A stretch of DNA of 64,000 bases from Acidimicrobiales bacterium (GTDB taxonomy: Bacteria; Actinomycetota; Acidimicrobiia; Acidimicrobiales; Bog-793), in the NCBI GenBank assembly GCA_036510575.1, contig DATCDR010000036.1, positions 54,161 to 118,160 on the forward strand, read 5' to 3'. Made by a program: the position numbers and the translations under genes. Positions 30,202-46,780 of this stretch are shown here, in pieces (position 1 is the first letter of the stretch; each line of letters opens with the position of its first letter). Under the pieces are notes generated by a model that was given only the letters and a program-made list of their open reading frames with translations, was not told where the DNA came from and made no database searches.

Positions 30202-31677
30202 ATGACGGAGGAGCAGCGCCGATCTCCGAGGTGCGTGGAAGACCTCGACACCACTCGGCCAGTACGATTGGCTCTGATACCTGGGCCGATTGTCTGGCTC
30301 CGCACCGCATTCAAGGAGACGATCGTGGCGGGTTCGAGTGCGTACTGGTTGGAGGCCGAGGCGAACGCCGAGGTTGGGTTTCCGCCCAGCGGACGGGTCT
30401 TTCGGCGGGGTCTCGGCAAGCTCATGTGGCCGTTCCTTAGCCATCAGGTCGCCGTCAATCGGGCGCTACTTGCCGAACTGGATGTCGTTCGCCAGCGCCT
30501 CGACCAAGCCGAGCAGCGACTGGATCGAGCCGACGGCGACCTCGCGCACCACACCGAAGTCCTCGTAAGGCACGAGGAGCCACTCGACCGATACGGACTG
30601 CACCTCACCTTGCTGCAAAAAAACGTCGAAGAACTCGGGAAGACGTTCGAGTCGGTGGCGGGCGAGCTGTGGACGAGCCGTGACATAGCGAGCACCGCAC
30701 TTCAAGAGACGCGGGCGCTCGCGCCGTCGGTAGAGGAGCTGATGCTGATACCCGGTGAGCTCCGCCAGATCGAGCAGCAGGCCTTCGCTCGATTCCACGA
30801 TGCGATGTCCGCGATGCGAACCGAGTTCGGTGACGTGAGCCAGTTGATCGAGGAGCGCTTCGAGGACTTCAAACGCCTCGAGATCGGGGTGCAGGACGCA
30901 CGCGGACGGCTCGTCGCGATCGAGATGCTCTTGAGCACGATCCGTCGGGGGTTGCCATCGGAACCATCCGCGCGCGAACTACCGACGACTCCTGGCACCG
31001 CGGATCTGATGTATGTCGGGCTAGAAGAGCTGATGCGTGGTCCGAGGGAGACGATCATGGCGCGCCTGACGGGCTATCTCGATGAGATCGCTGCACAGAA
31101 GAGTCGCGGGCCGGTCCTCGACGTCGGATCAGGCCGCGGCGAATGGCTGGCGATGCTGAAGGAAGCAGGCGCCGACGCGTACGGGGTCGAGATTGAGATG
31201 GCCTACGTCACTGGGGCACGCGAGCGCGGACTCGACGTCCGACACGAGGATCTACTCCCACATATCCGGTCCCTCAAGGACGCGTCACTTCGGGCGATCA
31301 CGGCGTTTCACGTCGTGGAGCATCTCCCGACCGAGTTGTTGCTGGAGTTCTTGAACGAGTCGCTCCGCGTGCTCGAACCCAACGGCCTGCTCATCTTGGA
31401 GACGCCAAACCCGGAAAACCTGATAGTTGCGGCATGCACCTTCTACCTCGACCCGACGCACCTGCACCCGCTACCGCCCTTGCTGCTCGAGTTTTTCGTG
31501 CGCTCCCGCGGCTTCGGGGAAACGCGCATCGAGTTCAAGAACCCGGCGATCGCGGCGCAGATCGCGATGCCGTCGTCGGCGAATCCTTGGTACAAAGAAG
31601 TTGCACCGATCGTCAATACCTTGAATGAGCGCTTCTTCGGCAGTCAGGACTACGCCGTGATCGCCCGCCGCTCTTGA
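30202..31677 (+). CDS. Coiled-coil + C-terminal class I SAM methyltransferase (module A)
   Basis: 491 aa. About aa 80-250 is heptad-like and charged (NRALLAELDVVRQRLDQAEQRLDRADGDL...). Methyltransferase motif I VLDVGSGRGEW lies at about aa 305-315, followed by FHVVEHLP and LILETPNPENL...FYLDPTHLHPLP. Paralog of 50726-52114. Confidence 0.8.
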   Translation: MTEEQRRSPRCVEDLDTTRPVRLALIPGPIVWLRTAFKETIVAGSSAYWLEAEANAEVGFPPSGRVFRRGLGKLMWPFLSHQVAVNRALLAELDVVRQRLDQAEQRLDRADGDLAHHTEVLVRHEEPLDRYGLHLTLLQKNVEELGKTFESVAGELWTSRDIASTALQETRALAPSVEELMLIPGELRQIEQQAFARFHDAMSAMRTEFGDVSQLIEERFEDFKRLEIGVQDARGRLVAIEMLLSTIRRGLPSEPSARELPTTPGTADLMYVGLEELMRGPRETIMARLTGYLDEIAAQKSRGPVLDVGSGRGEWLAMLKEAGADAYGVEIEMAYVTGARERGLDVRHEDLLPHIRSLKDASLRAITAFHVVEHLPTELLLEFLNESLRVLEPNGLLILETPNPENLIVAACTFYLDPTHLHPLPPLLLEFFVRSRGFGETRIEFKNPAIAAQIAMPSSANPWYKEVAPIVNTLNERFFGSQDYAVIARRS

Positions 31678-32906
31678 TCGGCACCTCCTCCGAGGGCGGT
31701 CGCGCACACGATGAGCTTTCAGCTGCACCGGCTGACCTCACGACCACTGGACTCGGTGTAAATGCGATCGCCAGCTTGTCGTCAACCACTGGGCTCTCCG
31801 AGGCAGCTCGACGTACGATCAGCGCCCTTCTTGCCGCAGGAATCAAGGTCTCGCTCGAGGACTATGACTACGGTGCCCCGCGAGAAGCTAATCGCTTCCC
31901 GCCCTCGTTCTCCTTCTTGCCGACGGGTCGCCCCTTCGACATCGACCTTTGCTTTCTCAATATCAACGAGATCGCGCTCGTTCCCGAAAAGTACCTGCGG
32001 GCTACCCGCCCCCGATACGTGATCGGGTCGTGGTTCTGGGAGCTCCCGGCCGTCCCCGGCCGTTTCCAATCTCAGATCCGTCGAGTCGACGAGATCTGGA
32101 CGGCTTCGCGATTCGTTCGAGACGTGTTCCAGCACTACACGGACCGCCCGGTGCGTGTGCTTCCGTGCGTCGTCGAGCCGTCACTCGACGCCTCGCGGAC
32201 ACGCCGGGACTTCGGCATTCCCGCCGGTGCCGTGGTCTGCCTGTTCAGCTTCGACGCGAACTCGACACTCGCAAGAAAAAATCCAAGGGCGGTGATCGAG
32301 GCCTTCCGCCGGGCGGTGCCTCGAGCAGCTCGCGGCGATTCAGCAATCCTCGTCATGAAATCCATCAACCTGCACAATTACCCAGAAGCTCGGCACTTCC
32401 TCGAACACGACTTGGCGTCGGTAGGCGGCGTGTTCATCGATGACGACCTCACACCCGGGGAGATGGGCGCACTCGTCGCGATGAGTGACATCTACGTCTC
32501 CCTCCACAGATCGGAGGGATTCGGTCTAGGCATGGCAGAGGCGATGTACTTCGGGAAAGCCGTCATCGGCACCGCATACTCGGGAAATACGGACTTCATG
32601 TCGGCGGCGAATAGCTGCCCCATCGGCTATCGGCTTGTCGAGGTGAGTCCCGCTGAGCTCCGTCTCAATCCCGGCGCCGAAAACGTCTACGAATATGGAC
32701 AGCTATGGGCAGAGCCAGACATCGACGAAGCATCAACGCGACTGCGATTTCTCATCGCCAATCCTGAGGCTCGGAAGAGAATCGGAGCGCGCGCGAGACG
32801 AACGATCGTGGAGCGCTACGGGGCGAGCACGGTCGGACGAACGATGAGCGAAGTGCTGCGCGAAGGGAACATCCTCCGGCTGCCAGAAGTCTCAGCCGCC
32901 ACTTGA
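31674..32906 (+). CDS. GT4-like glycosyltransferase (module A)
   Basis: 410 aa. GVNAIASLSSTTGLSEAARR..., IGSWFWELPAVPGRF, HRSEGFGLGMAEAMYFGKAVIGTAYSGN. Colinear with the C-terminal half of 48255-50612. Its TTG start overlaps the upstream stop. Confidence 0.8.
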   Translation: MIGTSSEGGRAHDELSAAPADLTTTGLGVNAIASLSSTTGLSEAARRTISALLAAGIKVSLEDYDYGAPREANRFPPSFSFLPTGRPFDIDLCFLNINEIALVPEKYLRATRPRYVIGSWFWELPAVPGRFQSQIRRVDEIWTASRFVRDVFQHYTDRPVRVLPCVVEPSLDASRTRRDFGIPAGAVVCLFSFDANSTLARKNPRAVIEAFRRAVPRAARGDSAILVMKSINLHNYPEARHFLEHDLASVGGVFIDDDLTPGEMGALVAMSDIYVSLHRSEGFGLGMAEAMYFGKAVIGTAYSGNTDFMSAANSCPIGYRLVEVSPAELRLNPGAENVYEYGQLWAEPDIDEASTRLRFLIANPEARKRIGARARRTIVERYGASTVGRTMSEVLREGNILRLPEVSAAT

Positions 32907-33124
32907 CGCGCGCACGACCAAGAAGTCCGTTAGCCGCCCATGCCGACCGGTGATTCGGCCTGCGATAGCACGCTCGTGGGACGCTTTGAGACTTCGCCCA
33001 TCCGGCACAGATGCTCGAGGTTGCGACGCCGGCAACGACGTCGGAATGACGACTGAGGACCGCGAACTTGACCAACCGGGGTCCGCGGCCGTCGCAGCTG
33101 GCCACGATTCTGAGCCTGGCACTA

Positions 33125-34018
33125 CTAGGCCAAAGGGACTTTGGCCGAGAAGACGAGATTCGCACCCGTGCCGTCATCTGCGGAGCCGACGATTCTCTCA
33201 GGTTCAAAGCCAACCTCGCGTAGGAGCTGTTGCACGTCACCTCCGAACTCGGTGTAGGCGAGCAGGTCGCCCCCGGCGGGCATGTAGCGAAACGGGCCGG
33301 CACCCCGCCCGTGATAGAGCGGAGCGACCTTATGGTCGACGGACCCGTCAGCGTTGATTTCCGCACGCGCGAATGTCATCGGACGGGAAGCGACGACCGG
33401 GATCGTGAAGATATGCCGACCGCCAGGCCGCAGGACCCGATAGGTCTCCCGGAGAGCTCGGCGGAAATCAGGGATGTGCTCGAGCGTGTCTGAGGAGAGG
33501 ACGATGTCGAACGAGTCGTCGACGTAGGTCAGCCGGCATATGTCCTCGTTCCTCGCGCCACCGACAACCTCCCCAAGCCGATCGCTTCCCCGGTACTCCG
33601 AGAATGAAAGATTGGGGAGCCGGTCGAGGAACCTTTGAAACGCGCCGACCGAGCCGATCGCGTTGATCTCAGCCACCGCGAGCGACCGGAATGCGGGCTC
33701 TTCGACGAGCTCGGAGACCGAGGCCGCCTTGTCGCCGTAAAGGCTGAGGAGAGCGTCCCCGATCCCCCGCACGCGAAGGCTCGAGTTGCAGGCCCGGCAG
33801 AAGAGGCTCTCCCTCCGTTGGTATCCGAAAAGTACGGCCGGGTCCTCGACATCGGCGAACTGCTCCGCCGGAATCACCCACGAGTTGAAGGTGAACGTCT
33901 CGGTCCCCCCGCACACCGAGCATCGCCCACGTTCGTCGTGCCGACGGTCACTCCGCCGACGGACCCGACGGAGGACCGCTGGTCCGAACCGCTCCTTCAC
34001 CCCGACGAGGAGTTTCAA
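33125..34018 (-). CDS. Zinc-ribbon + SAM-dependent methyltransferase
   Basis: 297 aa. CSVCGG...CRACN Cys4 element, then FDIVLSSDTLEHIPD...LRPGGRHIFTIP. Confidence 0.75.
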   Translation of the reverse strand: MKLLVGVKERFGPAVLRRVRRRSDRRHDERGRCSVCGGTETFTFNSWVIPAEQFADVEDPAVLFGYQRRESLFCRACNSSLRVRGIGDALLSLYGDKAASVSELVEEPAFRSLAVAEINAIGSVGAFQRFLDRLPNLSFSEYRGSDRLGEVVGGARNEDICRLTYVDDSFDIVLSSDTLEHIPDFRRALRETYRVLRPGGRHIFTIPVVASRPMTFARAEINADGSVDHKVAPLYHGRGAGPFRYMPAGGDLLAYTEFGGDVQQLLREVGFEPERIVGSADDGTGANLVFSAKVPLA

Positions 34019-34069
34019 GGTCGTCCGCTTTTCGGCGCTCTACCGGTTCGCTCCATATCGACTAGGAGC

Positions 34070-34864
34070 CTAATTGCCGGACTCCCGGCTCCTCAGGAAG
34101 AACGCAGAAGTCGCCTCGGGCACCCACCCGATTTCGAAGAGCGCGGAGGGATCCGCTCGATCGTGCAGCTGCGGCACGGACGGGCCGCGATCGGGCGCGG
34201 CCGTAGATTCGACGCCGAGGGCCGAGACCAGCTCCTCGACAGTGCGGAGCTCCCCTGAGCCGATCTGGACGACACCGCGGATTCCGTGCCGGACGACCGA
34301 CACAATCGCACGCGCGACATCGACTGCGAGGATGAAGTCGTGCTCACTTCCGGGGGAGCGCAGCTCGATCGGCTCGCCCCTTCCGCGTGCGGCGATCGCC
34401 TCGGCAACGAGCGCAGGTCGGCCGATCTCGGCGTCGAAGACGTAGTACGGGCGGAGCCAGGTGATCTCCCCCGAGTCGATCGCGGACTGGAGTGCCAGAC
34501 GGATACTGATCTTCGACGACGTGTACGCATCGAAGGACTCCCCACCCTCATCGAGCGACGTCCCCGTCCCGATGAACCACGCGCCGGACGCCCTGCATGC
34601 TTGCGCGAGCTCGATCGAGGCGGCCACCCAGCGGTCGTTGTCCGGAGACGACCGGTACCCTGCAGTGCCGCTCGCCGACCACGCGAGATGGACTACGACG
34701 GTCGGGGCGTGCGCTTGGATCAGCGCGCTCGGCACCCCAGCGGACAAGAGATCATCAACCCCTCGGTCGACAAGCACCAGCCGGGCCTCGGGAAGGTCCC
34801 ACTGTTCGAGCACGTACCGCCCAATCAGCCCGGACGACCCCGTGATCAGAACGCTTGCGGCCAC
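34070..34864 (-). CDS. NAD(P)-dependent short-chain sugar reductase/epimerase (RmlD-like, candidate 4-ketoreductase)
   Basis: 264 aa, GTG start. VLITGSSGLIGRYV Rossmann motif and YTSSK (YxxxK) catalytic motif. Confidence 0.7.
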   Translation of the reverse strand: MAASVLITGSSGLIGRYVLEQWDLPEARLVLVDRGVDDLLSAGVPSALIQAHAPTVVVHLAWSASGTAGYRSSPDNDRWVAASIELAQACRASGAWFIGTGTSLDEGGESFDAYTSSKISIRLALQSAIDSGEITWLRPYYVFDAEIGRPALVAEAIAARGRGEPIELRSPGSEHDFILAVDVARAIVSVVRHGIRGVVQIGSGELRTVEELVSALGVESTAAPDRGPSVPQLHDRADPSALFEIGWVPEATSAFFLRSRESGN

Positions 34865-34925
34865 GGTGGCGCCCCACGATCGGTGAGGTGGGTCAGGTAT
34901 TCGGCAGAGCTCACACCGCTCCCCT

Positions 34926-35240
34926 TTACGATTGCCCTGTGTGACCGGTGAGAAGGACTCGCCGCCCCTCCCAGAAAGCCGGATCGGGCGGGTTCGTTCT
35001 GCTCACGCTCACTCCGTAACCCAAGGCGCCTTCGCGCTCAACCACAGGCGGTAGAAACCGGAGCAGACCATGAACTCGGTAAAGCCGTGCGCAGCGTAAA
35101 ATTATGCGGCAAAGCATCGGCTTCGCGCCGGCCTCGACCATCGGCTTAGAACGAACCGCGGTCTCTTCGGAGAGCCGGCTCCCGAGACAGTCGGCAAGAA
35201 TCACGATCTTCATCCCACCGAGCTCTCCCTGCGTGGACAC
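34926..35240 (-). pseudogene. Frameshifted, internally deleted relic: 5' part of rfbF fused to a short 5' fragment of rfbG
   Basis: MKIVILADCLGSRLSEETAVRSKPMVEAGAKPML aligns with intact RfbF [34 protein letters not shown]. The homology continues in another frame (YAAHGFTEFMVCSGFY versus YAAHGFTDFLVCCGYK) after an in-frame TAA. The end, PDPAFWEGRRVLLTGHTG then stop, matches intact RfbG PDPTFWRGRRVLLTGHTGFKG. Confidence 0.8.
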
Positions 35241-35618
35241 CAGCTCTCGAAACGCTGACTATAACCAAGGGTCATCGGTACGACCGGGAAATCGAGCAGG
35301 CGAAGGGAACCGGAGTACTAGGTGCATCTTTGTGTCGCCGAAGGGAGTAGATAGTCGAGATTTGTGGATGAGCCCGACCCGCTGATCTAACCGCAACCAC
35401 CTCTTCTTGCAGCGAGCTCTATCGGCCAACACCCCTTTCGAGCGCCACACCCAGGCGCAGGAGACCGACGAGCTTCGGACCGTTGAGCGCGCGCCCTCGG
35501 TCGTCGGGGGACTCGAGAAGCTCGAGCGCCATCTCGAGCCCGGCAGGCAAGTCATCGCTCTTAGGGGGCGCCGTCTATGGTTTAAGTGTGAGTCGGTTCG
35601 CACGCTCCTCTGGGAGAC

Positions 35619-36584
35619 ATGGTGGACGCTGAGCCTCTGGTGTCGGTGATCGTGCCCGTCCTCAATGGCGAACGGCACATCGGCGCGTGCATCTCTTCGA
35701 TCCTCGATCAGAGCTACACAAACCTCGAACTCGTGATCGCGAACAACGCATCCACCGACCGCACCGCAGAGATCATCGCTTCCTTCGACGACGCGAGGAT
35801 TCGGGTGCTCCCGGACATCACAGAGCGCTTCGACATCCACTCCAACTGGACGCGCGCCGTCGGCTCGGCCCGCGGAGAGTTCGTCAAGATCGTCTGTCAC
35901 GACGACCTCCTGCTTCCCGAGTGCCTCACGATCCAGGTCGGCCTCCTCCGGGACCACCCAACCGCTGCACTGGTCGCGGGCCGGCGGAAGATTATCAACG
36001 ACCAGGACAAGGTCGTCATTCCCTCGAGAGGCCTAGGCAACCTGCTCAAAAACGAGAACCCGCGAGTGATCGCAGGGGATCTCCTTGCACGAGAGTGCAC
36101 GAGGGCGGGTACCAATCTTCTCGGGGAGCCCGCGAACGTGCTCATCCGGACCGCTTCGCTCCCGACGCCGCTCTTCGATCCGCGGTGGAAGTACGGCCTC
36201 GACATCGAGTTCTACGTGAGGTGCCTGACGGACCGCGATGCGGTCGTCGACAGTCACACATTGTGCTCCTTCCGGGTGAGCCCGACGCAGATGAGCGCCT
36301 CGCTCGCATCGGACCAGGCAAAGGAGCTCCGACTGCTATTCGAGGAAATCGAGCGACGACACCCAGATGTCGTGTCCCACAGCGACGTCCGCATCGGTGC
36401 CGCTCGAGCCCGCCTGCTCTCTCAGGCGCGGCGCCTCGTCTACCAGCAGATGCGACTTCAGGCGTACCTCAAGAAGCGCTTCGGACGGACCGAGTGCGTC
36501 GGCGCCCGTTCGACCGCGCACGACGCACCGGAGGTCGCGCCAGACTTGATACGCGGCGCAGCAACACCCAATTCTTCAGAGTGA
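35619..36584 (+). CDS. GT2-family glycosyltransferase
   Basis: 321 aa, ATG start. VSVIVPVLNGERHIGACISSILDQSYTNLELVIANNASTDRT...IVCHDDLL. Confidence 0.85.
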   Translation: MVDAEPLVSVIVPVLNGERHIGACISSILDQSYTNLELVIANNASTDRTAEIIASFDDARIRVLPDITERFDIHSNWTRAVGSARGEFVKIVCHDDLLLPECLTIQVGLLRDHPTAALVAGRRKIINDQDKVVIPSRGLGNLLKNENPRVIAGDLLARECTRAGTNLLGEPANVLIRTASLPTPLFDPRWKYGLDIEFYVRCLTDRDAVVDSHTLCSFRVSPTQMSASLASDQAKELRLLFEEIERRHPDVVSHSDVRIGAARARLLSQARRLVYQQMRLQAYLKKRFGRTECVGARSTAHDAPEVAPDLIRGAATPNSSE

Positions 36585-36594
36585 CACCGTCCTT

Positions 36595-36806
36595 GTGATC
36601 TACTACGGCGTCTTGTTCAGCCTTCTCACGTCGGCGCGCTTCAACCTAAACAACCCCTGGAGAAGCAGGCGGTCGATCAGGTGGCCGCGATCTCGGCTCG
36701 CCAGGCTGGTCGCACGTTAGGAGTTCTGTTGCGGTCCCCCTTCGTTGCAGGTGTTTTTCGCGTAACTACGTTGTGTCCGGACCGGTCACACGAACACGTC
36801 GAGTAG
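36595..36806 (+). pseudogene. Frameshifted N-terminal relic of the DMT/NIPA-like membrane protein gene
   Basis: VIYYGVLFSLLTSARFNLNN, then after a +1 shift near 36655, LEKQAVDQVAAISARQAGRTLGVLLRSPF. This aligns with the intact 40805-41779 product VIYGIVLSFAASVCFNLNNLMEKRAVDQMARLSVRRTRHMVVTLLRSPL. It terminates at the TAG at 36804-36806. Confidence 0.75.
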
Positions 36807-36903
36807 CACTCGGTCGCCACGGAGCTCGCAAGATGGGCGGCGAGCCAGACTAGGAGGGGTTTCCTCGAGGGTGCATCCCGGCAGGTTGGCGACGACGATC
36901 GTC

Positions 36904-37437
36904 TCAATGCGGTGGCCAGCTCGGCGCTCCCCGATCACGCTCCGAGATAACCGTCACCTCTAGCGGCCATTCGATTCCGACGGTGGGATCGTCCCAACGA
37001 AGCGACCGGGCGCTTTTTGCGACGTACGGCACGCTGATGAGGTACGTCATCATGCTCGCGTCCCGAAGAGTCTGGTAGCCGTGAGCGACGCCTCGTGGGA
37101 CATGTAGGGCGACTGGCTCACTCGCTAACAGGCGAACTCCAAGCCACTTGCCGTACGTCGGCTCACCTGGACGAAGGTCGACGAGAACATCGAACACCGC
37201 TCCGGCGTGGCACCAAAGCGTCTTCGCCTCGGCGTTCGGTTCGACTTGATAGTGCATACCCCGCACGGTGCCGGACCGGTCGTTCGTCACTATCGAGACC
37301 TGACACACTTCGGCCTCGACGCCGAAGGAACGCAGGAGGTCGAAATCCACCACGCGCCGAAAATCTCCCCGCTCGTCGCTGTGGAATTCAGTAGTTATGA
37401 GATAGACGCCGCGAAAGTCGAGCGCCTCCGCGTTCAC
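36904..37437 (-). CDS. NDP-4-dehydro-6-deoxyhexose 3,5-epimerase-like cupin (RmlC family)
   Basis: 177 aa. DERGDFRR...VRGMHYQ...KTLWCHAGAVFDVLVDLRPGEPTYGKW...HVPRGVAHGYQTL...WDDPTVGIEWP. Confidence 0.85.
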   Translation of the reverse strand: MNAEALDFRGVYLITTEFHSDERGDFRRVVDFDLLRSFGVEAEVCQVSIVTNDRSGTVRGMHYQVEPNAEAKTLWCHAGAVFDVLVDLRPGEPTYGKWLGVRLLASEPVALHVPRGVAHGYQTLRDASMMTYLISVPYVAKSARSLRWDDPTVGIEWPLEVTVISERDRGAPSWPPH

Positions 37438-38684
37438 GGCCCACCAATAACGGTCATCGCTGGGACAGCGAGCCAGCTGCGAGCGTCGGGCGTCAAGCGT
37501 TCAATGATCGCCGCGATCTCTGGTGCAATGTTCCAAGGCAGGACCAGGACGTCGCTTGGATCCGCGCCGGCGAGCTCGTCGGGAGGTACGACGCGGATGT
37601 GGCTTCCGGGAAGATACTTCCCCTGCTTCTCGATGCTTCCATCGGCGCAGAGGAGCACCTGGTCAGCAGTGACTCCAGCGGCATTGAGCAGCGTGTTCCC
37701 CTTCGCGGCGGCGCCGTAGGCCGCGACTCGGTCTCCTGCTGCTGAGCGCTCGAGCAACCAGGTTGCCAATCCTTCCACTGTGGAATGGCTTCGCTTTGCG
37801 AAATCGGTCCACAAGTCGGGCGACAAGAGCCCCGCCGTCGCTTCGTGGGCTATGGCGCGCGCGACGGAACCGTCGTCATGACCCTTTCCTTTCGGAATGA
37901 TCCAGTAGCGGTAGGAGCCGCCGTGGGTGGGGAGCTCCTCCACTCGGACGAGCTCGAGTCCGAGTGGGGCGACGGCTCGCCGTACCGCGTGCGCCGAAAG
38001 GTACGAGAAGTGCTCATGGTAGATCGTGTCGAATTGGGTCTTCTGGAGCAGGTTGAGGAACGACGGGTTTTCCACCGTGATGAGTGTCTCTGGGCCGGCG
38101 AGCGCGGCGAGCCCTGCAATGAAATCGTGCAGGTCTGGAACATGGGCCATCACGTTGTTTGCCGCGATGAGTTTCGGATGGCCGACTTCGGAGGCGATCT
38201 CGGCCCCGACATCTGCTCCGAGAAAGACCGACCTCGTGTCAATGCCGTCGGCTCGCGCGATTTCGGCGACATTGTCCGCCGGCTCGATACCAAGGGTCCG
38301 GACCCCCAGTTGCTGGAAGCAGCGAAGGAGATAACCGTCGTTGCTCGCGACCTCGACCACGAACGAGGAGTCGTCGAGCCCGAGCTCGCCGGTCATCCGC
38401 TCGGCGAACGACTGTGCATGGGCGACCCACGAGGTGGAGACCGACGATAGGTAGGGGTAATCGTTCTGAAAAATGCGTTCCGGCAGGACGAATTCGCCGA
38501 TCTGACCCAGTCCACACTCCGAACACACTGAGAGATGAAGGGGGAAGCACTCCTCTGGGGCATCGGCTGACAGCAGAAACTCGTTCGAGATCGGTTGCTC
38601 GCCGAGGTCGAGCACTGAGGTCAACGACTCCGACCCACATCCTCTGCAAACCCGGATTCCTCGATTCGTCAACGATTCACGCAT
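37434..38684 (-). CDS. NDP-hexose C-methyltransferase (TylCIII-like: zinc-binding N-domain + SAM MTase + C-methyltransferase C-domain)
   Basis: From ATG at 38684 (MRESLTNRGIRVCRGCGSESLTSVLDLGEQPISNEF...LSVCSECGLGQI...DYPYLSSVSTSWVAHAQSF...VVEVASNDGYLL). It overlaps the rfbG stop by 8 nt and the downstream epimerase start by 4 nt. Confidence 0.8.
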   Translation of the reverse strand: MRESLTNRGIRVCRGCGSESLTSVLDLGEQPISNEFLLSADAPEECFPLHLSVCSECGLGQIGEFVLPERIFQNDYPYLSSVSTSWVAHAQSFAERMTGELGLDDSSFVVEVASNDGYLLRCFQQLGVRTLGIEPADNVAEIARADGIDTRSVFLGADVGAEIASEVGHPKLIAANNVMAHVPDLHDFIAGLAALAGPETLITVENPSFLNLLQKTQFDTIYHEHFSYLSAHAVRRAVAPLGLELVRVEELPTHGGSYRYWIIPKGKGHDDGSVARAIAHEATAGLLSPDLWTDFAKRSHSTVEGLATWLLERSAAGDRVAAYGAAAKGNTLLNAAGVTADQVLLCADGSIEKQGKYLPGSHIRVVPPDELAGADPSDVLVLPWNIAPEIAAIIERLTPDARSWLAVPAMTVIGGP

Positions 38685-39777
38685 GTTCACGACTACGCCT
38701 TTCCACCTGAAACCTGTACTCGTCGAGTTGCTCGCCAGTGAGCTCAGATGCCGACTTACCGGATTGAACTCCCATATACCAGGACAACGTGAGCTCGACT
38801 GCCTCTTGCCAGTCGAGCACGCCTGACCAACCAAGGTCCCGCATGGCAAGCGTGGAATCGAGGGTCAAGGTTGCCATTTCGTGGTAGGTCGGTTCAGCCG
38901 TGGCCACCCACGGCTGCTCGGGGAGGCTGCCGCCAAGGTCGGTCCAGACCTTTGCCGCAAGTGTGACGATGTCTTGCACGGGAGCGGCGTCTAATTCAGT
39001 CGGTCCGAAGTTGTACGACTTCGAGACCTGGAGGTCGGTGGCGAGTGACTCGGCGAACACCAAGTAGCCGCGGAGCGGTTCAAGCACGTGTTGCCATGGC
39101 CGTACTCCTGCCGGGTTCCGAAGAACAAGCGTCTCGTCCGCCGACCAAGCACGAACCAAGTCGGGCAACAGACGGTCGAGTGACCAGTCCCCTCCGCCGA
39201 TGACATTGCCTGCGCGAGCGGTCCCTAGCCGAGTGCCAGTCGAGGGCCAGGCGGCGACCACGAGTTCGGCGGCTGCCTTGCTGGCGGCATACGGATCGAG
39301 ACCCCCAAGAAAACTTTGCTCAGAGAACGGCGTGGACTGTCGCGGGTCGTACACCTTGTCGGTGGTGATGACGAGACAGGCGATGACGCTAGGTGTCTCG
39401 CAAGCGAACCGAACAACGTCGGCAGTGCCTTGGATATTGGAACGAAAGGTGCGATACGGATCGCTGTAGCCGACCACGACGAGCGACTGGGCAGCGAGAT
39501 GAAGCACAACTTCGGGCGCCAACTCCGCTGCTGCTTGCTGCCAAAGCTCGGAGGTAATCTCGCCCCGCAGATCATGCACCCGAGCGAGACCCAGCTGCTC
39601 CCATAACGACGGCGTCGTGGGAGGTTCGGGAAGCGAGAGACCGATCACCTCAGCGCCAATAGCATCTAGCCAATACGCCAGCCACGAACCTTTGAATCCC
39701 GTGTGCCCGGTCAGCAGGACCCGACGACCTCGCCAGAACGTCGGATCCGGAAGATGCTGGCGCGACTCTCCACTCAC
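38677..39777 (-). CDS. rfbG: CDP-glucose 4,6-dehydratase
   Basis: FWRGRRVLLTGHTGFKGSWLAYWL, TTDKVY and YAASKAAAE motifs. I chose the GTG at 39777, which forms a GTGA overlap with the rfbF stop. The track start (39858) lies inside rfbF. Confidence 0.88.
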   Translation of the reverse strand: MSGESRQHLPDPTFWRGRRVLLTGHTGFKGSWLAYWLDAIGAEVIGLSLPEPPTTPSLWEQLGLARVHDLRGEITSELWQQAAAELAPEVVLHLAAQSLVVVGYSDPYRTFRSNIQGTADVVRFACETPSVIACLVITTDKVYDPRQSTPFSEQSFLGGLDPYAASKAAAELVVAAWPSTGTRLGTARAGNVIGGGDWSLDRLLPDLVRAWSADETLVLRNPAGVRPWQHVLEPLRGYLVFAESLATDLQVSKSYNFGPTELDAAPVQDIVTLAAKVWTDLGGSLPEQPWVATAEPTYHEMATLTLDSTLAMRDLGWSGVLDWQEAVELTLSWYMGVQSGKSASELTGEQLDEYRFQVERRSREHA

Positions 39778-40544
39778 TGCTGCAACCACGGGGCCTGCCC
39801 GGTGGCCCACAGCCGATTTAGCTCGTCTCGGTCGCGCAAGGTGTCCATTGGCTGCCAAAAGCCATCGTGGCGGAAGCAGGCGAGTTGCCCGGCTGCCGCA
39901 AGATGCTCGAGGGGCTCCGCCTCCCAGGCAGTGCTGTCACCGGCGATGAGGTCGATTACTGATGGCGATAGCATGAAAAATCCGCCGTTAATCCAAGCGT
40001 CCCCCCCCTCCGGTTTCTCCTTGAAGTTGACGACCCGGTCACCCTCGATTTCGAGGGCTCCGAACCGAGCCGGTGGTCGGACGGCGGTCACTGTCGCCAG
40101 CGTTCCCTGCTCCTCGTGGAAGGCCTTCAATGCAGTCACATCGATCGGCCCCACCGCGTCGCCGTAGGTCATGGCGAAGACGTCCTCCCCGTCGAGATAG
40201 GTAGCGACGCGGGCAATCCTGCCTCCGGTCTGGGTGGTGTCGCCAGTATCGACAAGCGTGACGTTCCATGGCTCGAGTTCGCGGTGATACACCGTGACTT
40301 CACCGTTGGACAGGTCGAAGCTCACGTCAGACCCATGGAGCACAAAGTTCGAGAAGTACTCCTTGATTACGTAACCCTTGTACCCGCAGCACACCAGGAA
40401 ATCGGTGAAACCGTGGGCAGCATAGATCTTCATGATGTGCCAGAGAATCGGCTTGGTACCGATCTCGACCATGGGCTTCGGGCGCACGGAGGTCTCTTCT
40501 GAGAGCCTGGTCCCGAGACCGCCGGCAAGGATTACGACCTTCAT
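39774..40544 (-). CDS. rfbF: Glucose-1-phosphate cytidylyltransferase
   Basis: MKVVILAGGLGTRLSEETSVRPKPMVEIGTKPILWHIMKIY...WINGGFF...FWQPMDTLRD. ATG at 40544; GTG at 40562 is an alternative. Confidence 0.9.
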   Translation of the reverse strand: MKVVILAGGLGTRLSEETSVRPKPMVEIGTKPILWHIMKIYAAHGFTDFLVCCGYKGYVIKEYFSNFVLHGSDVSFDLSNGEVTVYHRELEPWNVTLVDTGDTTQTGGRIARVATYLDGEDVFAMTYGDAVGPIDVTALKAFHEEQGTLATVTAVRPPARFGALEIEGDRVVNFKEKPEGGDAWINGGFFMLSPSVIDLIAGDSTAWEAEPLEHLAAAGQLACFRHDGFWQPMDTLRDRDELNRLWATGQAPWLQQ

Positions 40545-40564
40545 GCTGGACAGGGCTCCCACGG

Positions 40565-40602
40565 AACTCGCTAACTAGCGGACGATAAACTCGCTAACCA
40601 GC
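40565..40602. promoter_or_regulatory. Candidate operator: 15-nt direct repeat in the rfbF / DMT divergent intergenic region
   Basis: AACTCGCTAACTAGC (40565-40579) and AACTCGCTAACCAGC (40588-40602). 14/15 identical, with starts 23 nt apart. Confidence 0.3.
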
Positions 40603-40603
40603 C

Positions 40604-40614
40604 GACTATAAACC
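40604..40614 (-). promoter_or_regulatory. Candidate -10 element (TATAGT on minus strand) for the rfbF operon, conserved in the relic copy
   Basis: GACTATAAACC here and GACTATAACCA at 35258-35268, upstream of the rfbF relic. It is an AT-rich island in GC-rich DNA, about 60 nt upstream of the rfbF ATG. Confidence 0.3.
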
Positions 40615-40804
40615 AGCCCCCTCCCGTTGGGCCGGAACTCGGCTTACAGTTGAGTTGGCATCGCGGATGTGGCGGTGCGATGTGGTGCGCGCCTTGCTGC
40701 CGTCGGCAATGATTGCGTGTGCACTCGGTTCCTCGACAGCCAGAATCCGCGGCCAGCCGGAAGTTGTCCGTGGCATCTCCCGGCACGCTGGCGATGCACC
40801 CCTC

Positions 40805-41779
40805 GTGATCTACGGAATCGTTCTGTCGTTCGCCGCGTCCGTCTGCTTCAACCTGAACAACCTCATGGAGAAGCGTGCGGTCGATCAGATGGCAAGACTG
40901 TCCGTTCGCCGAACGCGGCACATGGTCGTCACGCTTCTGCGATCACCGCTCTGGCTGGGCGGCTTCGCCCTTGGCGTACTCGCGGTAGTGCTGCTCACCC
41001 TCGCGTATTCGCTCGTTTCGATCGCGATCGTCCAATCGATCTTCGGAGCGGGAATCGTCCTCCTGGTGCCGGCCTCCCGGCTTTGGCTAGGCGAGCACCT
41101 GGGAAAGCGCGAGGTTGGCGGGCTCTGCCTTATCATCTCGGCGGTCGTGCTGGTCTCAGTGTCGCTCGGCAGTTCATCCGCGCCCATCGACTCCCTTTCG
41201 TTGCTCCGAGTGATGGTCGTGAGCGGGCTCACGCTTGTGTCCGCGGGGCTCCTCTTCGGGGCGCTCCGCCGATCCTCGACCGACGTCAGCATCGCTTTGG
41301 GTGCCTCGTGCGGACTCATCTATGGCGTCGCGTCGATCCAGTCGAAGAGTGCGTCGGTGCTTCTTGAACATCGCGGGCTAGTGCACGGCATTGTCCGGGT
41401 TTTAGGGTCGCCCTACCCGTACGCGTTCCTTGTTGCATCACTCCTAGGCCTTGTGGTCTTCCAAGCGAGCCTCCAGCGCGTACGAATCGCGCTCGCGGCG
41501 CCAATGGTCAACATCGTCGGCAGCGCCTACACCGTCGGCGTGGGCATGCTCATCTTCGACGAGAGATTGCCCGCGAACCCTGCGCTCGCAAGTCTTCGCC
41601 TCGGTGGGTTCGCGGTCGTCCTCGTCGGTACGTGGATCCTCGCCACGGGAAATCCGGTCGTAGAGCGCGCTGCCGCCGTCCTTCCCGACAACGACACTGC
41701 CGAGATAGCGCCGAAAGAAGCGCCGCCCCAACTACAGCCAGACCGTCCAGATACGTGCCCGATCGACGGTTCCATCTAG
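40805..41779 (+). CDS. 9-TM DMT-superfamily (NIPA/EamA-like) membrane protein, candidate lipid-linked sugar flippase/transporter
   Basis: About 9 hydrophobic helices. I chose the start at GTG 40805 because the relic copy begins at the equivalent GTGATCTAC. The track ORF starts at 40655 with an Arg-rich, non-coding-looking extension. Confidence 0.6.
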   Translation: MIYGIVLSFAASVCFNLNNLMEKRAVDQMARLSVRRTRHMVVTLLRSPLWLGGFALGVLAVVLLTLAYSLVSIAIVQSIFGAGIVLLVPASRLWLGEHLGKREVGGLCLIISAVVLVSVSLGSSSAPIDSLSLLRVMVVSGLTLVSAGLLFGALRRSSTDVSIALGASCGLIYGVASIQSKSASVLLEHRGLVHGIVRVLGSPYPYAFLVASLLGLVVFQASLQRVRIALAAPMVNIVGSAYTVGVGMLIFDERLPANPALASLRLGGFAVVLVGTWILATGNPVVERAAAVLPDNDTAEIAPKEAPPQLQPDRPDTCPIDGSI

Positions 41780-42249
41780 ATCCTCGGCTCCACCTTTCTC
41801 GAAGCTTTCCATGCGCCAGGTCGAGGTTTCGCGCACCTTCGGCTTCGTAGTAGCCACCTCGACGATCCTTGGCCACCTAGCGGGATCGGAATCACTTTCA
41901 TCCATCGCTTGACGAAGGCAAGATCTGGTTCGGTCAGGCGGTCGCAGGTAGCCGGCGGAAAGGAATATCCGGACGCTCTGCGTTCATCCTCCCGATACTC
42001 GACCGGGCAGAAGCTTGCCTTGCGAAAAGGCCAACTGAGCGCGACGTCGAGGTTCACACCCGGACCTACGTAAAGCGAGAAGGCGCGACGGACCTCGCGT
42101 AGCATCAGGTGGAAACTTGAGAAACTCGTGAGTTCGTGCCCAGCATTAGGTGGCTGATGAGGAACCTCGCAGACCATGTCCCGACGTTGCGGAGCGGTTC
42201 GTGGGAGGCGTGTTCGTGGCTCTACCGTAGACGAGCTGGGCTCCATCAT
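41776..42249 (-). CDS. Hypothetical protein (possibly degraded)
   Basis: 157-aa ORF. The central part looks coding-like (LYVGPGVNLDVALSWPFRKASFCPVEYRED...AFVKRWMKVIPIPL), but the C-terminal tail is Arg-rich and junk-like and overlaps the DMT gene end. No family recognised. Confidence 0.3.
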   Translation of the reverse strand: MMEPSSSTVEPRTRLPRTAPQRRDMVCEVPHQPPNAGHELTSFSSFHLMLREVRRAFSLYVGPGVNLDVALSWPFRKASFCPVEYREDERRASGYSFPPATCDRLTEPDLAFVKRWMKVIPIPLGGQGSSRWLLRSRRCAKPRPGAWKASRKVEPRI

Positions 42250-42395
42250 CGAGGGCCTGATCGAGCGAATAGTGGCCGAAGACCGCCTCGCTGATCCCCT
42301 TACAAGTTCCTTCGCTCAGGTTCAGGGCTACCAACTACTTGGGGTCGCTTGGGTCAGCGTGATCACCACATGGGAGCAGATATGCATCGCTGACA

Positions 42396-43532
42396 TCACT
42401 CGGTGGAGTCGGGTAAATTGATCGATTCCTTAATGACATAGAGCGGTCGATGCTTGATCTCGCGATAGATCCGGCCGATGTACTCTCCGAGCACGCCGGC
42501 GCAGATCAGTTGAATGCCACCGAGGAACAGCAGCACACACATCAGCGACGCGTATCCTGGAATCTGGTCGGCAGGATGGATCAGTTTTCCTGCAATTATC
42601 CAACAGATGTAGGTCATGCTCGCCAACGTCACTAATGCTCCGAGTTGGAGGGCGAGCCGTAGCGGGCGCTCCGAAAACCCCGTGATCCCATTCACGGCCA
42701 GCCGAAACATCTTTCCCAGGTTGTAGCTCGTGGTCCCGCCGTGTCGGGGATCCCGGATGTAATTGATCGGTACCTGGCGGAACCCGAGCCAAGACACCAT
42801 CCCGCGCAGATACCTGCTCTCCTCTCTCATTGAACGAAGCGCGAGAACCACCTTGCGATCCATGAGGCGGAAATCACCAGCATCAATCGTCATCGGAGTC
42901 TCCGACAGGCGAGACAAAAGGCGGTAAAAGGCTCGGGCGCTGAGCACCTTGAGTGTCGATTCTCCGCGGCGCGCATCACGCACCCCGTAGACAACCTGCG
43001 CCCCCGCTCGCCATTCCTCAACCATTCGCGCGATGACCTCAGGGGGATCTTGGAGATCGCTGTCGATGACGACCACCGCATCTCCTGATGTGTGGTCAAG
43101 GCCACAAGTAATGGCGACCTGATGCCCGAAGTTGCGAGACAGCTGAATCACCCGCAGCCTCGTGTCCATCGCGGCGGCCTCGCGAAGGTGATCCGGTGAC
43201 TTGTCGGTACTTCCGTCATCGACGAGCACCATCTCCCAGCCAGCGTCCAGGTCAAGCCCGTCGAGTACGCAGCGACACCTGCGAACGAACTCATCGATGC
43301 ACTCTTCCTCGTGGTACACGGGCGCGACAACAGAAAGAGTCGGATGCGCGGGCGAGTCCACGACGATGATGGTATTCGAATCTATCTTCTTCGGCGCGGA
43401 GTCGATCTCGAAATCCTGCGTCGGCGTGCCCCTAACCGTCGCCCAACAGCGAGTGAGACTGCCTTGGGAACCGGTGTACTTACGCCGCGAGCTCTCGTGA
43501 TGTTGGCGCCGCCGAGAGAGCAGAGTCTGCAT
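42396..43532 (-). CDS. GtrB/ArnC-type GT2 polyprenol-phosphate glycosyltransferase with two C-terminal TM helices
   Basis: LSVVAPVYHEEECIDEF...LVDDGSTDKS...LSRNFGHQVAITCGLDH...VVVIDSDLQDPPEVI...AGDFRLMDRKVV, then two TM helices (LQLGALVTLASMTYICWIIAG, LMCVLLFLGGIQLICAGVLGEYIGRIY). The N-terminal ~70 aa may be an over-extension. Confidence 0.85.
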   Translation of the reverse strand: MQTLLSRRRQHHESSRRKYTGSQGSLTRCWATVRGTPTQDFEIDSAPKKIDSNTIIVVDSPAHPTLSVVAPVYHEEECIDEFVRRCRCVLDGLDLDAGWEMVLVDDGSTDKSPDHLREAAAMDTRLRVIQLSRNFGHQVAITCGLDHTSGDAVVVIDSDLQDPPEVIARMVEEWRAGAQVVYGVRDARRGESTLKVLSARAFYRLLSRLSETPMTIDAGDFRLMDRKVVLALRSMREESRYLRGMVSWLGFRQVPINYIRDPRHGGTTSYNLGKMFRLAVNGITGFSERPLRLALQLGALVTLASMTYICWIIAGKLIHPADQIPGYASLMCVLLFLGGIQLICAGVLGEYIGRIYREIKHRPLYVIKESINLPDSTE

Positions 43533-44066
43533 CGATGGCGAGGCCTCCTATCGAGGCTCGGGCGCGGTCGTTCGACTCCGAGCAGAGTTTGGAAGTGTTC
43601 CCCGAGGAAGAGCACCGCCCTGGCCGTCGTGTTGACAACGAGGTCCTTGTAGCCCCGTTGTGATCCGAACTTCGGCTAGCCCGATCGCCTACCATCCGGC
43701 CGTGGATGAGCGCGTGACCGTCGACTTTGCGTGGCAAGTGGTCGGTGGCGTCAGGCTCGATAGCAACTGTCGCCATTGGTCTTCGATGAATTCGCGTCGT
43801 CTGCTGGTACCCGGTGACCTTCCACCAGGTCGCCAACCAACGGTGCTCCAGGAGCTCGTCACCGACACTGTCAGCCTCGGCGGCCCAGAACAGGATGATA
43901 CTTTTGGGCGATTCTCGAAGCGCTCATCATGGGCACCCGCGCGATGGATGGAACAGCATTGATGCCACCAACTGTGTGCGCGCTGAACGAAGACAGTCGT
44001 GACTGCCGCGCGCCGAGCCTGGTCAGTGGTGTCCTCGAACGAGCGTTGTCGGCTCCGGCGCCTTAG

Positions 44067-46340: not shown

Positions 46341-46350
46341 CTACACGTCG

Positions 46351-46661
46351 ATGAACCGACGGCATAGGCAGCTGGCGCGCAGGTTTCCCCAACCGTTCGG
46401 CTTCAGTCGAGGTGCCAGATGCGTTCGCCCGAAATCCAAGCTCAGCCCTTCATGGACGTCGTCGACGCGATCTTGGTCGAGCGCGGGGCACCACCGAAGC
46501 AGCGCCACACGGTCTGGCGCACCCTCGAATGCCTGCGCGACGAGCACGCCTGGATCGACAGCGAGGTAACGATCCGGCGCCAGGGGAGGCAGCACCGCGC
46601 ACCTCCGCCGAGGTTGGTCGGTCGGCACCCCAGGCACGAGAAAAAGTCATCTCGCCATTGA
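46351..46661 (+). mobile_element. IS21-family transposase (IstA) N-terminal relic, frameshifted and truncated before the DDE domain
   Basis: RPKSKLS in one frame, then QPFMDVVDAILVERGAPPKQRHTVWRTLECLRDEHAWIDSEVTIRR in the next. This matches the IstA segment ...KLDPF..YID..L....AP.KQRHTA.RI..RL..EHGF.GSY.TV.RYV. No catalytic domain follows. Confidence 0.55.
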
Positions 46662-46780
46662 ACTAGCGACCGAGGCGTGTGATCGGCCTCGTGTCAACAC
46701 AGCCGCGTGACACTCCCCCTAGGCTGTGGAGCGACTGTAGTGCGGATGCTTCGAAGAGATGCCGCCGCGAACGGATAGAT

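Follow-up and report, generated by a model that had tools for sequence, protein, structure and literature searches.

Why does an uncultured Acidimicrobiaceae-like bacterium hold, within its gene cluster for a cell-surface polysaccharide, a broken second sugar-synthesis operon in the form of short stubs? In the window, the whole 64,000-nucleotide stretch of DNA that was analysed, rfbF, rfbG and a DMT-like permease gene are present as decayed pieces at 34852-35270 and 36595-36806, which are 76-88% identical in nucleotide sequence (E 3.5e-27 and 2e-10) to intact copies at 38677-41779. The second operon is reduced to stubs because an intact copy adjoins it, and the result is a recombination scar of a type well known in polysaccharide clusters. 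An earlier note on this DNA had described a divergent rfbF-DMT junction that is simply present twice, which does not hold: the unit that collapsed is the whole rfbF-rfbG-C-methyltransferase-RmlC-SDR operon. The region is very probably what is left of a complete canonical CDP-sugar operon that was pruned beside a diverged intact cassette.

The intact cassette

Cassette 1 was delimited as a homologous block and by family profiles, and its minus-strand genes are divergent from a plus-strand permease gene:

36853-41779, both strands: intact cassette 1
36904-37437, minus strand: RmlC-like protein
37434-38684/38849, minus strand: 3-C-methyltransferase
38677-39810, minus strand: rfbG (NCBIfam TIGR02622, 352 bits; cut-off 278.45)
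39774-40544, minus strand: rfbF (NCBIfam TIGR02623, 417.7 bits; cut-off 300.25)
40805-41779, plus strand: DMT-like permease, divergent from rfbF

Because RfbF and RfbG exceed their equivalog cut-offs, the nucleotide of the cassette 1 sugar is predicted to be CDP; the RmlC-like protein falls under the dTDP-specific cut-off (136.6 versus 155.75). The intact rfbF has a dN/dS of 0.05-0.08. Cassette 1 is 85-88% identical in nucleotide sequence to the related loci L019, L020 and L021, and the boundaries of the locus are mosaic, homology to these three breaking at 36853-36892, about 50 nt beyond the RmlC stop, and homology to L023 at 34110 and 40593. RmlC is followed in L019 and L021 by methyltransferase, acetyltransferase and aminotransferase genes, and in L020 by IS3 fragments.

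The degraded second cassette

The second cassette consists of stubs, of the intact genes that accompany them, and of a control region:

35214-35270, minus strand: retained rfbF' 5' control region, with a -10-like TATAGT (35263-35258) within TGGTTATAGTC, a GGGAG ribosome-binding site (RBS; 35229-35225) and an ATG (35213-35211)
35058-35213, minus strand: rfbF' 5' stub, codons 1 to ~54, with a 5-bp deletion and a mutated GGxGTR loop
34935-35050, minus strand: rfbF' 3' end (codons ~250-262, weak) and rfbG' 5' end, the latter being aa 32-54 of a 393-aa ORF and ending at the GHTG of the NAD-binding motif
34852-34913 (start approximate), minus strand: RmlC' tail, the last ~20 codons with a 1-nt deletion, overlapping the GTG start of SDR264 at 34864
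34070-34864, minus strand: SDR264, short-chain dehydrogenase/epimerase family (Pfam Epimerase, weak RmlD_sub_bind match)
33125-34018, minus strand: MT297, intact SAM-dependent methyltransferase (Pfam Methyltransf_11 and related), last gene of the collapsed cassette
35619-36584, plus strand: GT2_321, intact family-2 glycosyltransferase (Pfam Glycos_transf_2, E 3.9e-20)
36595-36806, plus strand: DMT' stub, start codon and ~60 codons, truncated at about 36775-36806

When the two regions are aligned as nucleotides, their similarity is well above chance: 35058-35213 matches 40384-40544 (76% over 161 nt, E 3.5e-27) and 36638-36685 matches 40845-40893 (88% over 49 nt, E 2e-10). With a tblastn match at E 2e-8 for RfbG, this bears out the proposal of the earlier note that the rfbF, rfbG and DMT-like fragments are decayed homologues; its further proposals, that they belong to a second CDP-sugar cassette and that this cassette was reduced once redundant with the intact one 1.7 kb away, are also supported. 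The homology is joined by reproducible disabling lesions (frameshifts and large deletions, in four identical assemblies), and the functional counterparts rfbF, rfbG, C-methyltransferase, RmlC and DMT are all intact at 36904-41779.

RfbF residues 2-61 are matched by tblastn at 35228-35052 across two frames, the frame change being a 5-bp deletion that the alignment places at 35100/35101. An internal deletion of ~563 bp follows the 5' stub, after which a collinear C-terminal piece, missed by the earlier note, lies at 35050-35012 (weak alone, E 0.1). The repaired peptide is 66-68% identical to the intact RfbF of the window, L019 and L020. The first 34 residues had been said to match almost fully; they are homologous, but 24 of the 34 (71%) are identical in the tblastn alignment. 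The catalytic N-terminal nucleotide-binding loop, LAGGxGTRL in the family and LAGGLGTRL in the intact copy and in relatives, reads LADCLGSRL in the stub. Instead of the full-length TIGR02623 frame of ~255 aa, 35213-35012 retains codons 1 to ~54 and ~250-262, and no Pfam domain was found in the 104-aa ORF of the rfbF' stub.

RfbG aa 32-54 (PDPxFWxGRRVLLTGHTG) are found at 35003-34935, with 78% identity over 23 aa (E 2e-8), and over 18 aa this piece shares 94% identity with the RfbG of L039 and L043. The nucleotide block 34988-34936 is 75% identical to 39750-39698, collinear with the intact copy where its rfbF and rfbG overlap. The complete SDR fold of TIGR02622, with Tyr-x-x-x-Lys downstream of GxxGxxG, is gone, for the 23 remaining codons run to ...LLTGHTG and then to QS and a stop. 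A third remnant, also missed by the earlier note, is the tail of the RmlC-like epimerase, whose peptide ...LTDRGAPPWPQAF matches the intact tail ...SERDRGAPSWPPH. Alone it is weak (E 0.05 for 8 aa), and it and the RfbF' C-terminal piece gain weight only from their position and collinearity.

Pieces of the known five-gene operon account for almost the whole of the 420-nt stub. IS, aminotransferase, acetyltransferase and C-methyltransferase remnants were sought in the stub region and none was found, and Rfam detected no RNA family in 32800-42000. Two junction stretches, of ~78 nt (36775-36852) and 21 nt (34914-34934), are without an assigned origin.

Are the lesions genuine?

The apparent second copy could be an artefact of chimeric metagenome assembly, or of errors that break true full-length genes. 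The sequences matching the window are metagenome contigs with no isolate genome among them, and some related long-read contigs (e.g. L021) are full of frameshifts. However, four contigs (two ENA assemblies, one Logan, one JGI), representing four samples and three assembly pipelines, share 100% identity over the 2051-nt stretch 34860-36910. Errors cannot yield deletions of ~563 bp and ~2.7 kb or substitutions in catalytic motifs, and L005, a relative that has diverged to 85% identity, shares GT2 and the DMT' stub. Given four identical contigs and deletions that span hundreds to thousands of bases, sequencing error is not the source of the lesions, and an artefact is hardly credible.

A collapsed five-gene operon

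In 34 actinobacterial genomes there is a conserved operon rfbF-(rfbG)-3-C-methyltransferase-RmlC-SDR, with a homologue of SDR264, 41-56% identical to it, as the last gene. This homologue is downstream of the 3-C-methyltransferase in 34 of 34 and of the RmlC-like gene in 33 (L048 is without an RmlC match), rfbF is upstream where the locus extends far enough, and in many of these genomes the RmlC stop overlaps the SDR start. In the window the order is rfbF' 5', rfbF' 3'/rfbG' 5', RmlC' 3' and SDR264, and the RmlC' tail aligns with the RmlC-stop/SDR-start overlap of L025, L027, L031, L035, L039 and L043. From the rfbF ATG to the SDR start there are about 3590 nt in L031 and 349 nt in the window. 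Because the SDR homologue ends the conserved operon in 34 genomes, the stub can be read as a collapsed form of it, shrunk from about 3.6 kb to 349 nt. The remnants share the gene order and the stop/start overlap of the canonical operon, as found in Acidothermaceae bacterium B102 (L031) and Nocardioides spp., whereas in the window about 90% of the operon ahead of the SDR has been lost to deletion or frameshift, and a separate cassette encodes the enzymes that are missing. In a limited literature search, no description of the product of the rfbF-(rfbG)-3-C-methyltransferase-RmlC-like-SDR operon was found. An apparent internal RmlC deletion in L025 proved to be a scaffold gap of Ns and no lesion.

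From its operon position and a weak similarity to the structure of dTDP-4-dehydrorhamnose reductase, SDR264 would be a 4-ketoreductase, the surviving terminal enzyme of the collapsed operon. MT297 is 87% identical in amino acid sequence to its L023 counterpart and is under purifying selection (dN/dS 0.11), and a 53% identical homologue follows RmlC in L019 and L021. L023 offers a parallel to the window: there the same promoter and RBS, with the ATG and one further codon, run straight into rfbG at codon ~62, in front of another gene, and a 41-nt remnant of the SDR264 3' end lies beside MT297. It was considered whether the window rfbG', which ends at aa 54, and the L023 rfbG remnant, whose alignment starts at aa 55, are reciprocal products of one breakpoint. 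This idea was rejected because what aligns as 'aa 55-61' in L023 is the RBS/ATG region translated in frame, and the rfbG remnant proper begins near codon 62.

The glycosyltransferase and the permease stub

The earlier note had placed GT2 in a former intergenic region, and its model was that the rfbF-DMT junction was duplicated about 5 kb away, that GT2 was later inserted into one intergenic region, and that this copy decayed. Both sides of the junction do occur twice, the -10-like element included; the intergenic region of the stub copy, at 405 bp plus GT2, exceeds the 260 bp of the intact one and is unrelated to it beyond about 60 nt from rfbF'; and an IS lies just upstream of GT2 in L005, which indicates a spot prone to insertions. 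Against the model, L022, L025 and L027 all keep a GT2_321-like gene with a DMT-like gene directly after it on the same strand; L005 has the same GT2 and DMT' stub, without the frameshift and cut earlier; and the DMT' start codon is only 11 nt past the GT2 stop. Neither inverted repeats, nor a target-site duplication, nor transposase remnants were found around GT2 in the window, so that an IS or transposon insertion is not indicated, and the model leaves the RmlC' tail at the SDR start unexplained. We consider this model very unlikely, and the intergenic placement of GT2 is not supported; the GT2-DMT pair is most likely native to the second cassette.

DMT aa 46-74 and 71-109 are matched by tblastn at 36580-36773 with a frame change between them, a 1-nt deletion near 36655, and many DMT homologues align to the stub from residues 1-2. 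The description of GT2 and the SDR as functional-looking stands: GT2_321 is 86% identical in amino acid sequence to its L005 counterpart with a dN/dS of 0.18, as expected under purifying selection, and the operon retains the SDR homologue in the 34 genomes. A metagenome scan with the GT2 protein returned distant GT2s only (28-37% identity), in uninformative contexts. An attempt to join L005 (IS, GT2 and DMT' stub) to L020 (intact cassette and IS3), which come from the same sample, found no shared sequence beyond the DMT similarity. The IS upstream of GT2, flanked by a CTAG duplication, was seen only in L005.

Duplication or merger?

How did two cassettes come to lie side by side? The stub is 76% identical to the intact rfbF of its own genome and 76-80% identical to orthologues in other strains. 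Counted by codon position (1/2/3), its differences number 8/5/21; pS is 0.37-0.54 and pN is raised (0.12-0.13), over 52 codons only. The third-position bias indicates that the two copies diverged while both were functional. A recent tandem or segmental duplication is not what is seen, for the copies are not closest relatives, their pS is 0.37-0.54, and they are not adjacent head to tail; the same pS and the equal distance to orthologues of other strains speak against the local duplication of the earlier model. Its wider claim, duplication or recombination of two CDP-sugar cassettes followed by decay, is thus right about a second cassette and its decay but not about a simple or recent duplication. 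A merger of two diverged cassettes would fit the sequence comparisons better than recent duplication in place.

No relative with the two cassettes intact and adjacent turned up among the contexts of GT2, DMT and SDR homologues, and the intermediate is thus hypothetical. In no genome was rfbF found divergent from GT2-DMT; in L025 and L027 (Acidimicrobiaceae), GT2_321-like and DMT genes are divergent from C-methyltransferase, RmlC and SDR genes, the divergent partner of GT2 being the C-methyltransferase.

Pruning into a hybrid pathway

A history consistent with these observations would start from an ancestral minus-strand operon rfbF'-rfbG'-3-C-methyltransferase'-RmlC-like epimerase'-SDR264-MT297, divergent from a GT2-DMT' pair, that came to adjoin the diverged cassette at 36853-41779 with its working first four enzymes and permease. 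Redundant genes would then have been lost, in an order that we can only infer: one deletion would have removed about 563 bp within rfbF', another about 2.7 kb from rfbG' codon ~55 to RmlC' codon ~157, DMT' would have been truncated after about 60 codons, and two small frameshifts would have been added. What survives is what has no duplicate elsewhere, SDR264, MT297 and GT2, together with the rfbF' promoter-like element, RBS and start codon and the RmlC'/SDR start overlap. The present locus is probably a hybrid pathway in which cassette 1 would make a CDP-4-keto-6-deoxy-3-C-methyl-hexose intermediate and the remnant cassette would supply the final reduction, a methylation and a transferase. Annotators are thereby warned to treat SDR264, MT297 and GT2 as functional partners of the rfbF-RmlC genes, which lie 2-5 kb distant.

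Sequence comparison confirms the GACTATAA(A)CC element that the earlier note had seen upstream of rfbF (35258-35268 and 40604-40614). On the minus strand it reads TGG(T)TTATAGTC, and it precedes rfbF without variation in the stub, the intact copy, L019, L020, L021 and L023; in high-GC loci the TGGTTATAGTC motif occurs upstream of rfbF only. Between the stub and the upstream regions of four intact rfbF genes, the -10-like motif, GGGAG and ATG do not vary, with diverged flanks. A promoter and terminator consensus scan gave nothing relevant and did not flag the retained -10-like element; as far as conservation can be a guide, it would be a promoter, and the surviving rfbF' 5' elements probably still drive SDR264-MT297 through a ~350-nt leader.

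Could the stubs themselves be selected elements, either a leader/promoter cassette, possibly with the 95-codon fusion ORF that runs open from 35213 to 34926 despite the frameshift, or a spacer/terminator between the convergent GT2 and RmlC? As a leader they could let SDR264-MT297 share the control of the intact rfbF operon. Neighbouring bases have diverged around a perfectly kept -10-like motif, GGGAG and ATG, the 5' control region and the RmlC'/SDR overlap are spared exactly by both deletions, the independent L023 deletion likewise keeps promoter, RBS and ATG, and the DMT' stub persists in two lineages at dS about 0.36. However, motif retention is equally expected under recent inactivation, alternative frames often stay open at 62% GC, searches of the stubs for Rfam families, terminators and a promoter consensus gave no match, and the L005 DMT' stub is cut at a different point. 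Selection on the stubs is therefore possible but doubtful. Less likely still is that deletions in this clade repeatedly drop the coding part of the operon and always spare the rfbF promoter, RBS and ATG, as a 'promoter-capture' leader of which the window and L023 would be two examples; surviving downstream genes may then stay under the same control.

As a further speculation alongside this unlikely reading, the odd split operons of other Acidimicrobiaceae, L025 and L027 (rfbF-rfbG / inverted GT2-DMT / C-methyltransferase-RmlC-SDR), could be viewed as alternative resolutions of the same double-cassette intermediate. If so, the window would be a snapshot of operon re-wiring by duplication and complementary loss.

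Relation to known systems

Modular recombination that leaves gene fragments is the textbook mode of evolution of O-antigen and capsule loci. The window is reminiscent of the O-antigen clusters of Salmonella enterica, in which wzy remnants are found in groups B1 and D1, group D2 derives from D1 and E, and the remnants have been used to infer cluster ancestry (PMC3715488). In both cases the surface-polysaccharide loci are modular, non-functional remnants stay behind from serial deletions after a second gene had assumed the function, and different lineages retain different pieces of one gene (PMC3715488). The Salmonella clusters also carry the CDP-sugar genes ddhA/ddhB, equivalent to rfbF/rfbG. 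Unlike Salmonella, the host here is an uncultured high-GC actinobacterium (Acidimicrobiaceae-like) and not an enterobacterium, a whole five-gene sugar operon has collapsed rather than a single wzy gene, the junction has no H-repeat or IS, and the function is split between two cassettes and has not moved outside the cluster. This is an ordinary phenomenon comparable to the Salmonella O-antigen remnants, in a new organism, and no new mechanism is involved. Its value is as an unusually complete record of one evolutionary step in the surface-polysaccharide locus of a poorly known uncultured actinobacterial lineage, in which two diverged sugar cassettes appear to have been merged and pruned into one non-redundant hybrid pathway.

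TDP-sugar pathways to 3-C-methyl branched deoxysugars usually combine a C-methyltransferase with three further proteins: a reductase, a 4,6-dehydratase and one resembling a 3,5-epimerase. The cassette 1 C-methyltransferase matches solved sugar 3-C-methyltransferases of the TylC3, KijD1 and TcaB9 type (PDB 4rv9, 5t64, 3ndi) with E values of 1.9e-70 (the best) to 7.4e-58, and it is accompanied by proteins of the same three kinds. Unlike in the TDP-sugar pathways, the nucleotide in the window is predicted to be CDP, and the setting is a cell-surface polysaccharide cluster instead of an antibiotic cluster.

Locus and gene map

The window has a G+C content of about 62%, and at about 13-54 kb it holds a large gene cluster for a cell-surface polysaccharide, with glycosyltransferases, methyltransferases and sugar-nucleotide enzymes. 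By exact look-up its proteins occur on metagenome contigs, and homologues are labelled Acidimicrobiaceae or Acidimicrobiales. The genes considered here are listed below; a prime denotes a decayed remnant copy.

Genes of the two cassettes
33125-34018, minus strand: MT297, SAM-dependent methyltransferase
34070-34864, minus strand: SDR264, short-chain dehydrogenase/epimerase-family protein, GTG start at 34864
between SDR264 and GT2_321: stub region
35619-36584, plus strand: GT2_321, family-2 glycosyltransferase
between GT2_321 and the RmlC-like gene: DMT' stub, GTG at 36595
36904-37437, minus strand: RmlC-like gene
37434-38849, minus strand: sugar 3-C-methyltransferase (C-MT), matching solved sugar 3-C-methyltransferases, E 1.9e-70
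38677-39810, minus strand: rfbG, NCBIfam equivalog TIGR02622, 352 against a cut-off of 278.45
39774-40544, minus strand: rfbF, NCBIfam equivalog TIGR02623, 417.7 against a cut-off of 300.25
40805-41779, plus strand: DMT-like permease, GTG start at 40805

A second, collapsed cassette

A blastn search of the whole window with 34800-36950 returned two significant non-self matches: 35058-35213 (rfbF') to 40384-40544 (161 nt, 76%, E 3.5e-27) and 36638-36685 (DMT') to 40845-40893 (49 nt, 88%, E 2e-10). At the protein level, 35228-35052 corresponds to RfbF residues 2-61 and 36580-36773 to DMT residues 46-109, each spread over two frames, and 35003-34935 to RfbG residues 32-54 (78%); a weak, collinear match to the RfbF C-terminus at 35050-35012 lies ahead of the rfbG' piece. 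The frame changes are due to a 5-bp deletion at 35100/35101 in rfbF' and a 1-nt deletion near 36655 in DMT', and about 563 bp have been deleted at 35057-34989, since this stretch spans 69 nt in the stub versus 633 nt in the intact gene. The earlier note had described a decayed second rfbG-rfbF/DMT junction and had called for a nucleotide alignment of the two regions, naming an absence of similarity or sequencing errors as what would undo it. The similarity is significant and four contigs (ENA, two; Logan; JGI) agree at 100% identity over the whole 2051 nt, so the observation stands. Its "almost residue for residue" match of the first 34 RfbF' residues was overstated, the identity counted from the alignment being 71%, and the nucleotide-binding loop reads LADCLGSRL, mutated from LAGGLGTRL. 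By every membership test the stubs fall outside functional RfbF or RfbG, and they classify as gene remnants and as derived from the canonical operon.

What might this operon have looked like? The minus strand directly 5' of SDR264 encodes ...LTDRGAPPWPQAF*, which matches the intact RmlC-like C-terminus ...SERDRGAPSWPPH* (asterisk, stop codon) and overlaps the SDR264 GTG start at 34864; alignment with relatives identifies about 62 nt (34913-34852) as the final ~20 codons of RmlC, one nucleotide of which has been deleted. Scanning genomes with an alignment of SDR264 yielded 34 loci, spread over Acidimicrobiaceae, Acidothermaceae, Nocardioides, Marmoricola, Frankiales, Sporichthyaceae and others. 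The SDR homologue lies downstream of the 3-C-methyltransferase in all 34, and an RmlC-like gene sits between the two in 33, the exception being L048, where an RmlC match was not found. In every scanned locus extending that far rfbF is upstream of the SDR homologue; rfbG is either part of the operon or found a few kb 3' of it. In many of the 34 the RmlC end overlaps the SDR start. The RmlC' tail at the start of SDR264, together with this conserved order, argues that the stub is a canonical rfbF-rfbG-C-MT-RmlC-SDR operon, collapsed by two deletions: the one of ~563 bp separates the promoter-like region and the rfbF' 5' end from the rfbF' 3' end, which adjoins the rfbG' 5' end, and another of ~2.7 kb separates these from the RmlC' tail, followed by SDR264 and MT297. 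The rfbF ATG and the SDR start are 349 nt apart in the window versus ~3590 nt in the related locus L031, and 34914-34934 (21 nt) is the sole part of the stub without an assigned operon piece.

The intact gene of the window and that of L020 are each 76% identical to the rfbF' stub, and those of L019 and L021 80%; L019, L020 and L021 are related loci on other contigs. In a small sample of 52 codons, differences at codon positions 1/2/3 number 8/5/21, pS is 0.37-0.54 (versus 0.22-0.27 between orthologues of cassette 1 and 0.70-0.83 in comparison with L027), and pN is raised, at 0.12-0.13. The third-position bias and the pS and pN values suggest that most of the divergence arose while both copies were functional, with a shorter period of relaxed constraint following. 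On these 52 codons, a merger of two diverged cassettes fits better than in-place duplication followed by decay. The decayed second CDP-sugar cassette of the earlier note is thus retained, and simple duplication is not.

A retained, putative control region

Three elements are shared without change by the stub, the intact copy, L019, L020 and L021, and the sequence around them has diverged.

35263-35258, minus strand: -10-like TATAGT, within TGG(T)TTATAGTC
35229-35225, minus strand: GGGAG
35213, minus strand: rfbF' ATG

Among high-GC loci the TGG(T)TTATAGTC motif occurs upstream of rfbF only. A consensus scan called no promoter at the rfbF' control region, and RNA families gave no match in the stub region. 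SDR264-MT297 is probably transcribed from the old, putative rfbF' promoter via a ~350-nt leader. L023 (9586-9830 / 3688-3777) is an independent parallel: the whole CDP-sugar cassette is absent, and what is left of rfbF (promoter-like element, RBS, ATG and one further codon) is joined to rfbG codon ~62. This fusion leads into a homologue of the window's 757-aa gene, and next to the MT297 orthologue 41 nt of the SDR264 3' end persist. We infer that the deletions that survive are those sparing the promoter, because distal genes would still need it. Separately, a 23-nt tandem duplication (AACTCGCTAACTAGCGGACGATA / AACTCGCTAACCAGCCGACTATA) at 40565-40610, between the -10-like element and RBS of intact rfbF, is absent in L019, L020, L021 and the stub copy.

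GT2_321 and the DMT' stub

The GTG at 40805 is the true DMT-family start, because many homologues begin there; its DMT' equivalent at 36595 lies 11 nt 3' of the GT2 stop. A GT2_321-like gene is directly followed by a DMT-like gene in L022 (58% and 50% identity), L025 and L027, and in the last two the pair is divergent from C-MT-RmlC-SDR, the same topology as in the window; the order in L007 and L008 is GT2-RmlC-like-SDR-DMT. L005, 85% identical to the window in nucleotides, has the same GT2 and a DMT' stub that lacks the frameshift and is cut earlier. GT2_321 is under purifying selection (dN/dS 0.18), and repeats, target duplications and transposase fragments were looked for in its flanks in the window and not found. 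The conserved pairing, shared topology and purifying selection make GT2_321 most probably an original gene of the collapsed cassette; an insertion into a former intergenic region, where the earlier note placed it, is set aside. Upstream of the GT2 in L005 (105-1870) is an IS with a 505-aa DDE_Tnp_1/DUF772 transposase, inverted ends (..GTTGGACAA..) and a CTAG target duplication; the equivalent window site, 35420/35426, is empty. The L019 contig, which has an intact rfbF<->DMT cassette, bears another DMT-like copy that is frameshifted (12117-12946; 54% and 40% identity, two frames) and lies upstream of a GT2_378 homologue. In the clade of L019 and the window, DMT genes may have been duplicated and have decayed repeatedly.

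A hybrid locus

L019, L020 and L021 are 85-88% identical to the window in nucleotides only across about 36853-41779 (cassette 1), the homology ending ~50 nt beyond the RmlC stop. There, 3' of RmlC, L019 and L021 carry a methyltransferase (53% to MT297), a hexapeptide acetyltransferase, a DegT aminotransferase and a GT2 (~50% to GT2_321), which looks like an amino-sugar variant without the SDR. Divergence in the flanks is similar to that in the cassette (GT1_410 87% identical in nucleotides to L021, right flank 86% to L020), so there is no sign of a recent arrival of cassette 1. As read from sequence, the window joins a cassette-1-type operon's front half to SDR264, MT297 and GT2, the back half of a canonical reductase-type cassette, each predicted function being kept once. 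An unlikely reading is that the stubs are a promoter-capture leader, or that a double cassette was resolved in complementary ways; the latter would account for the split operons of L025 and L027. O-antigen loci are classically known both for remnants that serial deletion left once a function had been replaced and for clusters recombined from two parents (PMC3715488); the window's case is of the same kind, in a new lineage and a different operon.

Directly 3' of RmlC in L020 (2078-2841) are IS3-family transposase fragments (HTH_Tnp_1, HTH_21; no rve domain), at the same breakpoint where the window goes over to the DMT' stub. On both sides of 41955-48196 L020 and the window are collinear, and an epimerase and a different GT2 stand in L020 in place of window ~42266-48196 (GT2_378, the 757-aa gene, MT377), which makes a second cassette swap at this locus. 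Two inverted paralogous two-gene modules (30202-32906, plus; 48255-52114, minus) bracket the variable centre holding both cassettes, MT491-GT1_410 matching MT462-GT1_785 (C-terminal half) at 36% and 48% in amino acids. A ~60-80-nt element, GCCGACCG.TGAT.CG..CCTGC..TAGCACGCTCG..., without an Rfam match, lies on the same strand just 3' of both GT1 paralogues (32926-33004 and 48112-48174); it begins with a small hairpin and is kept in L020 too.
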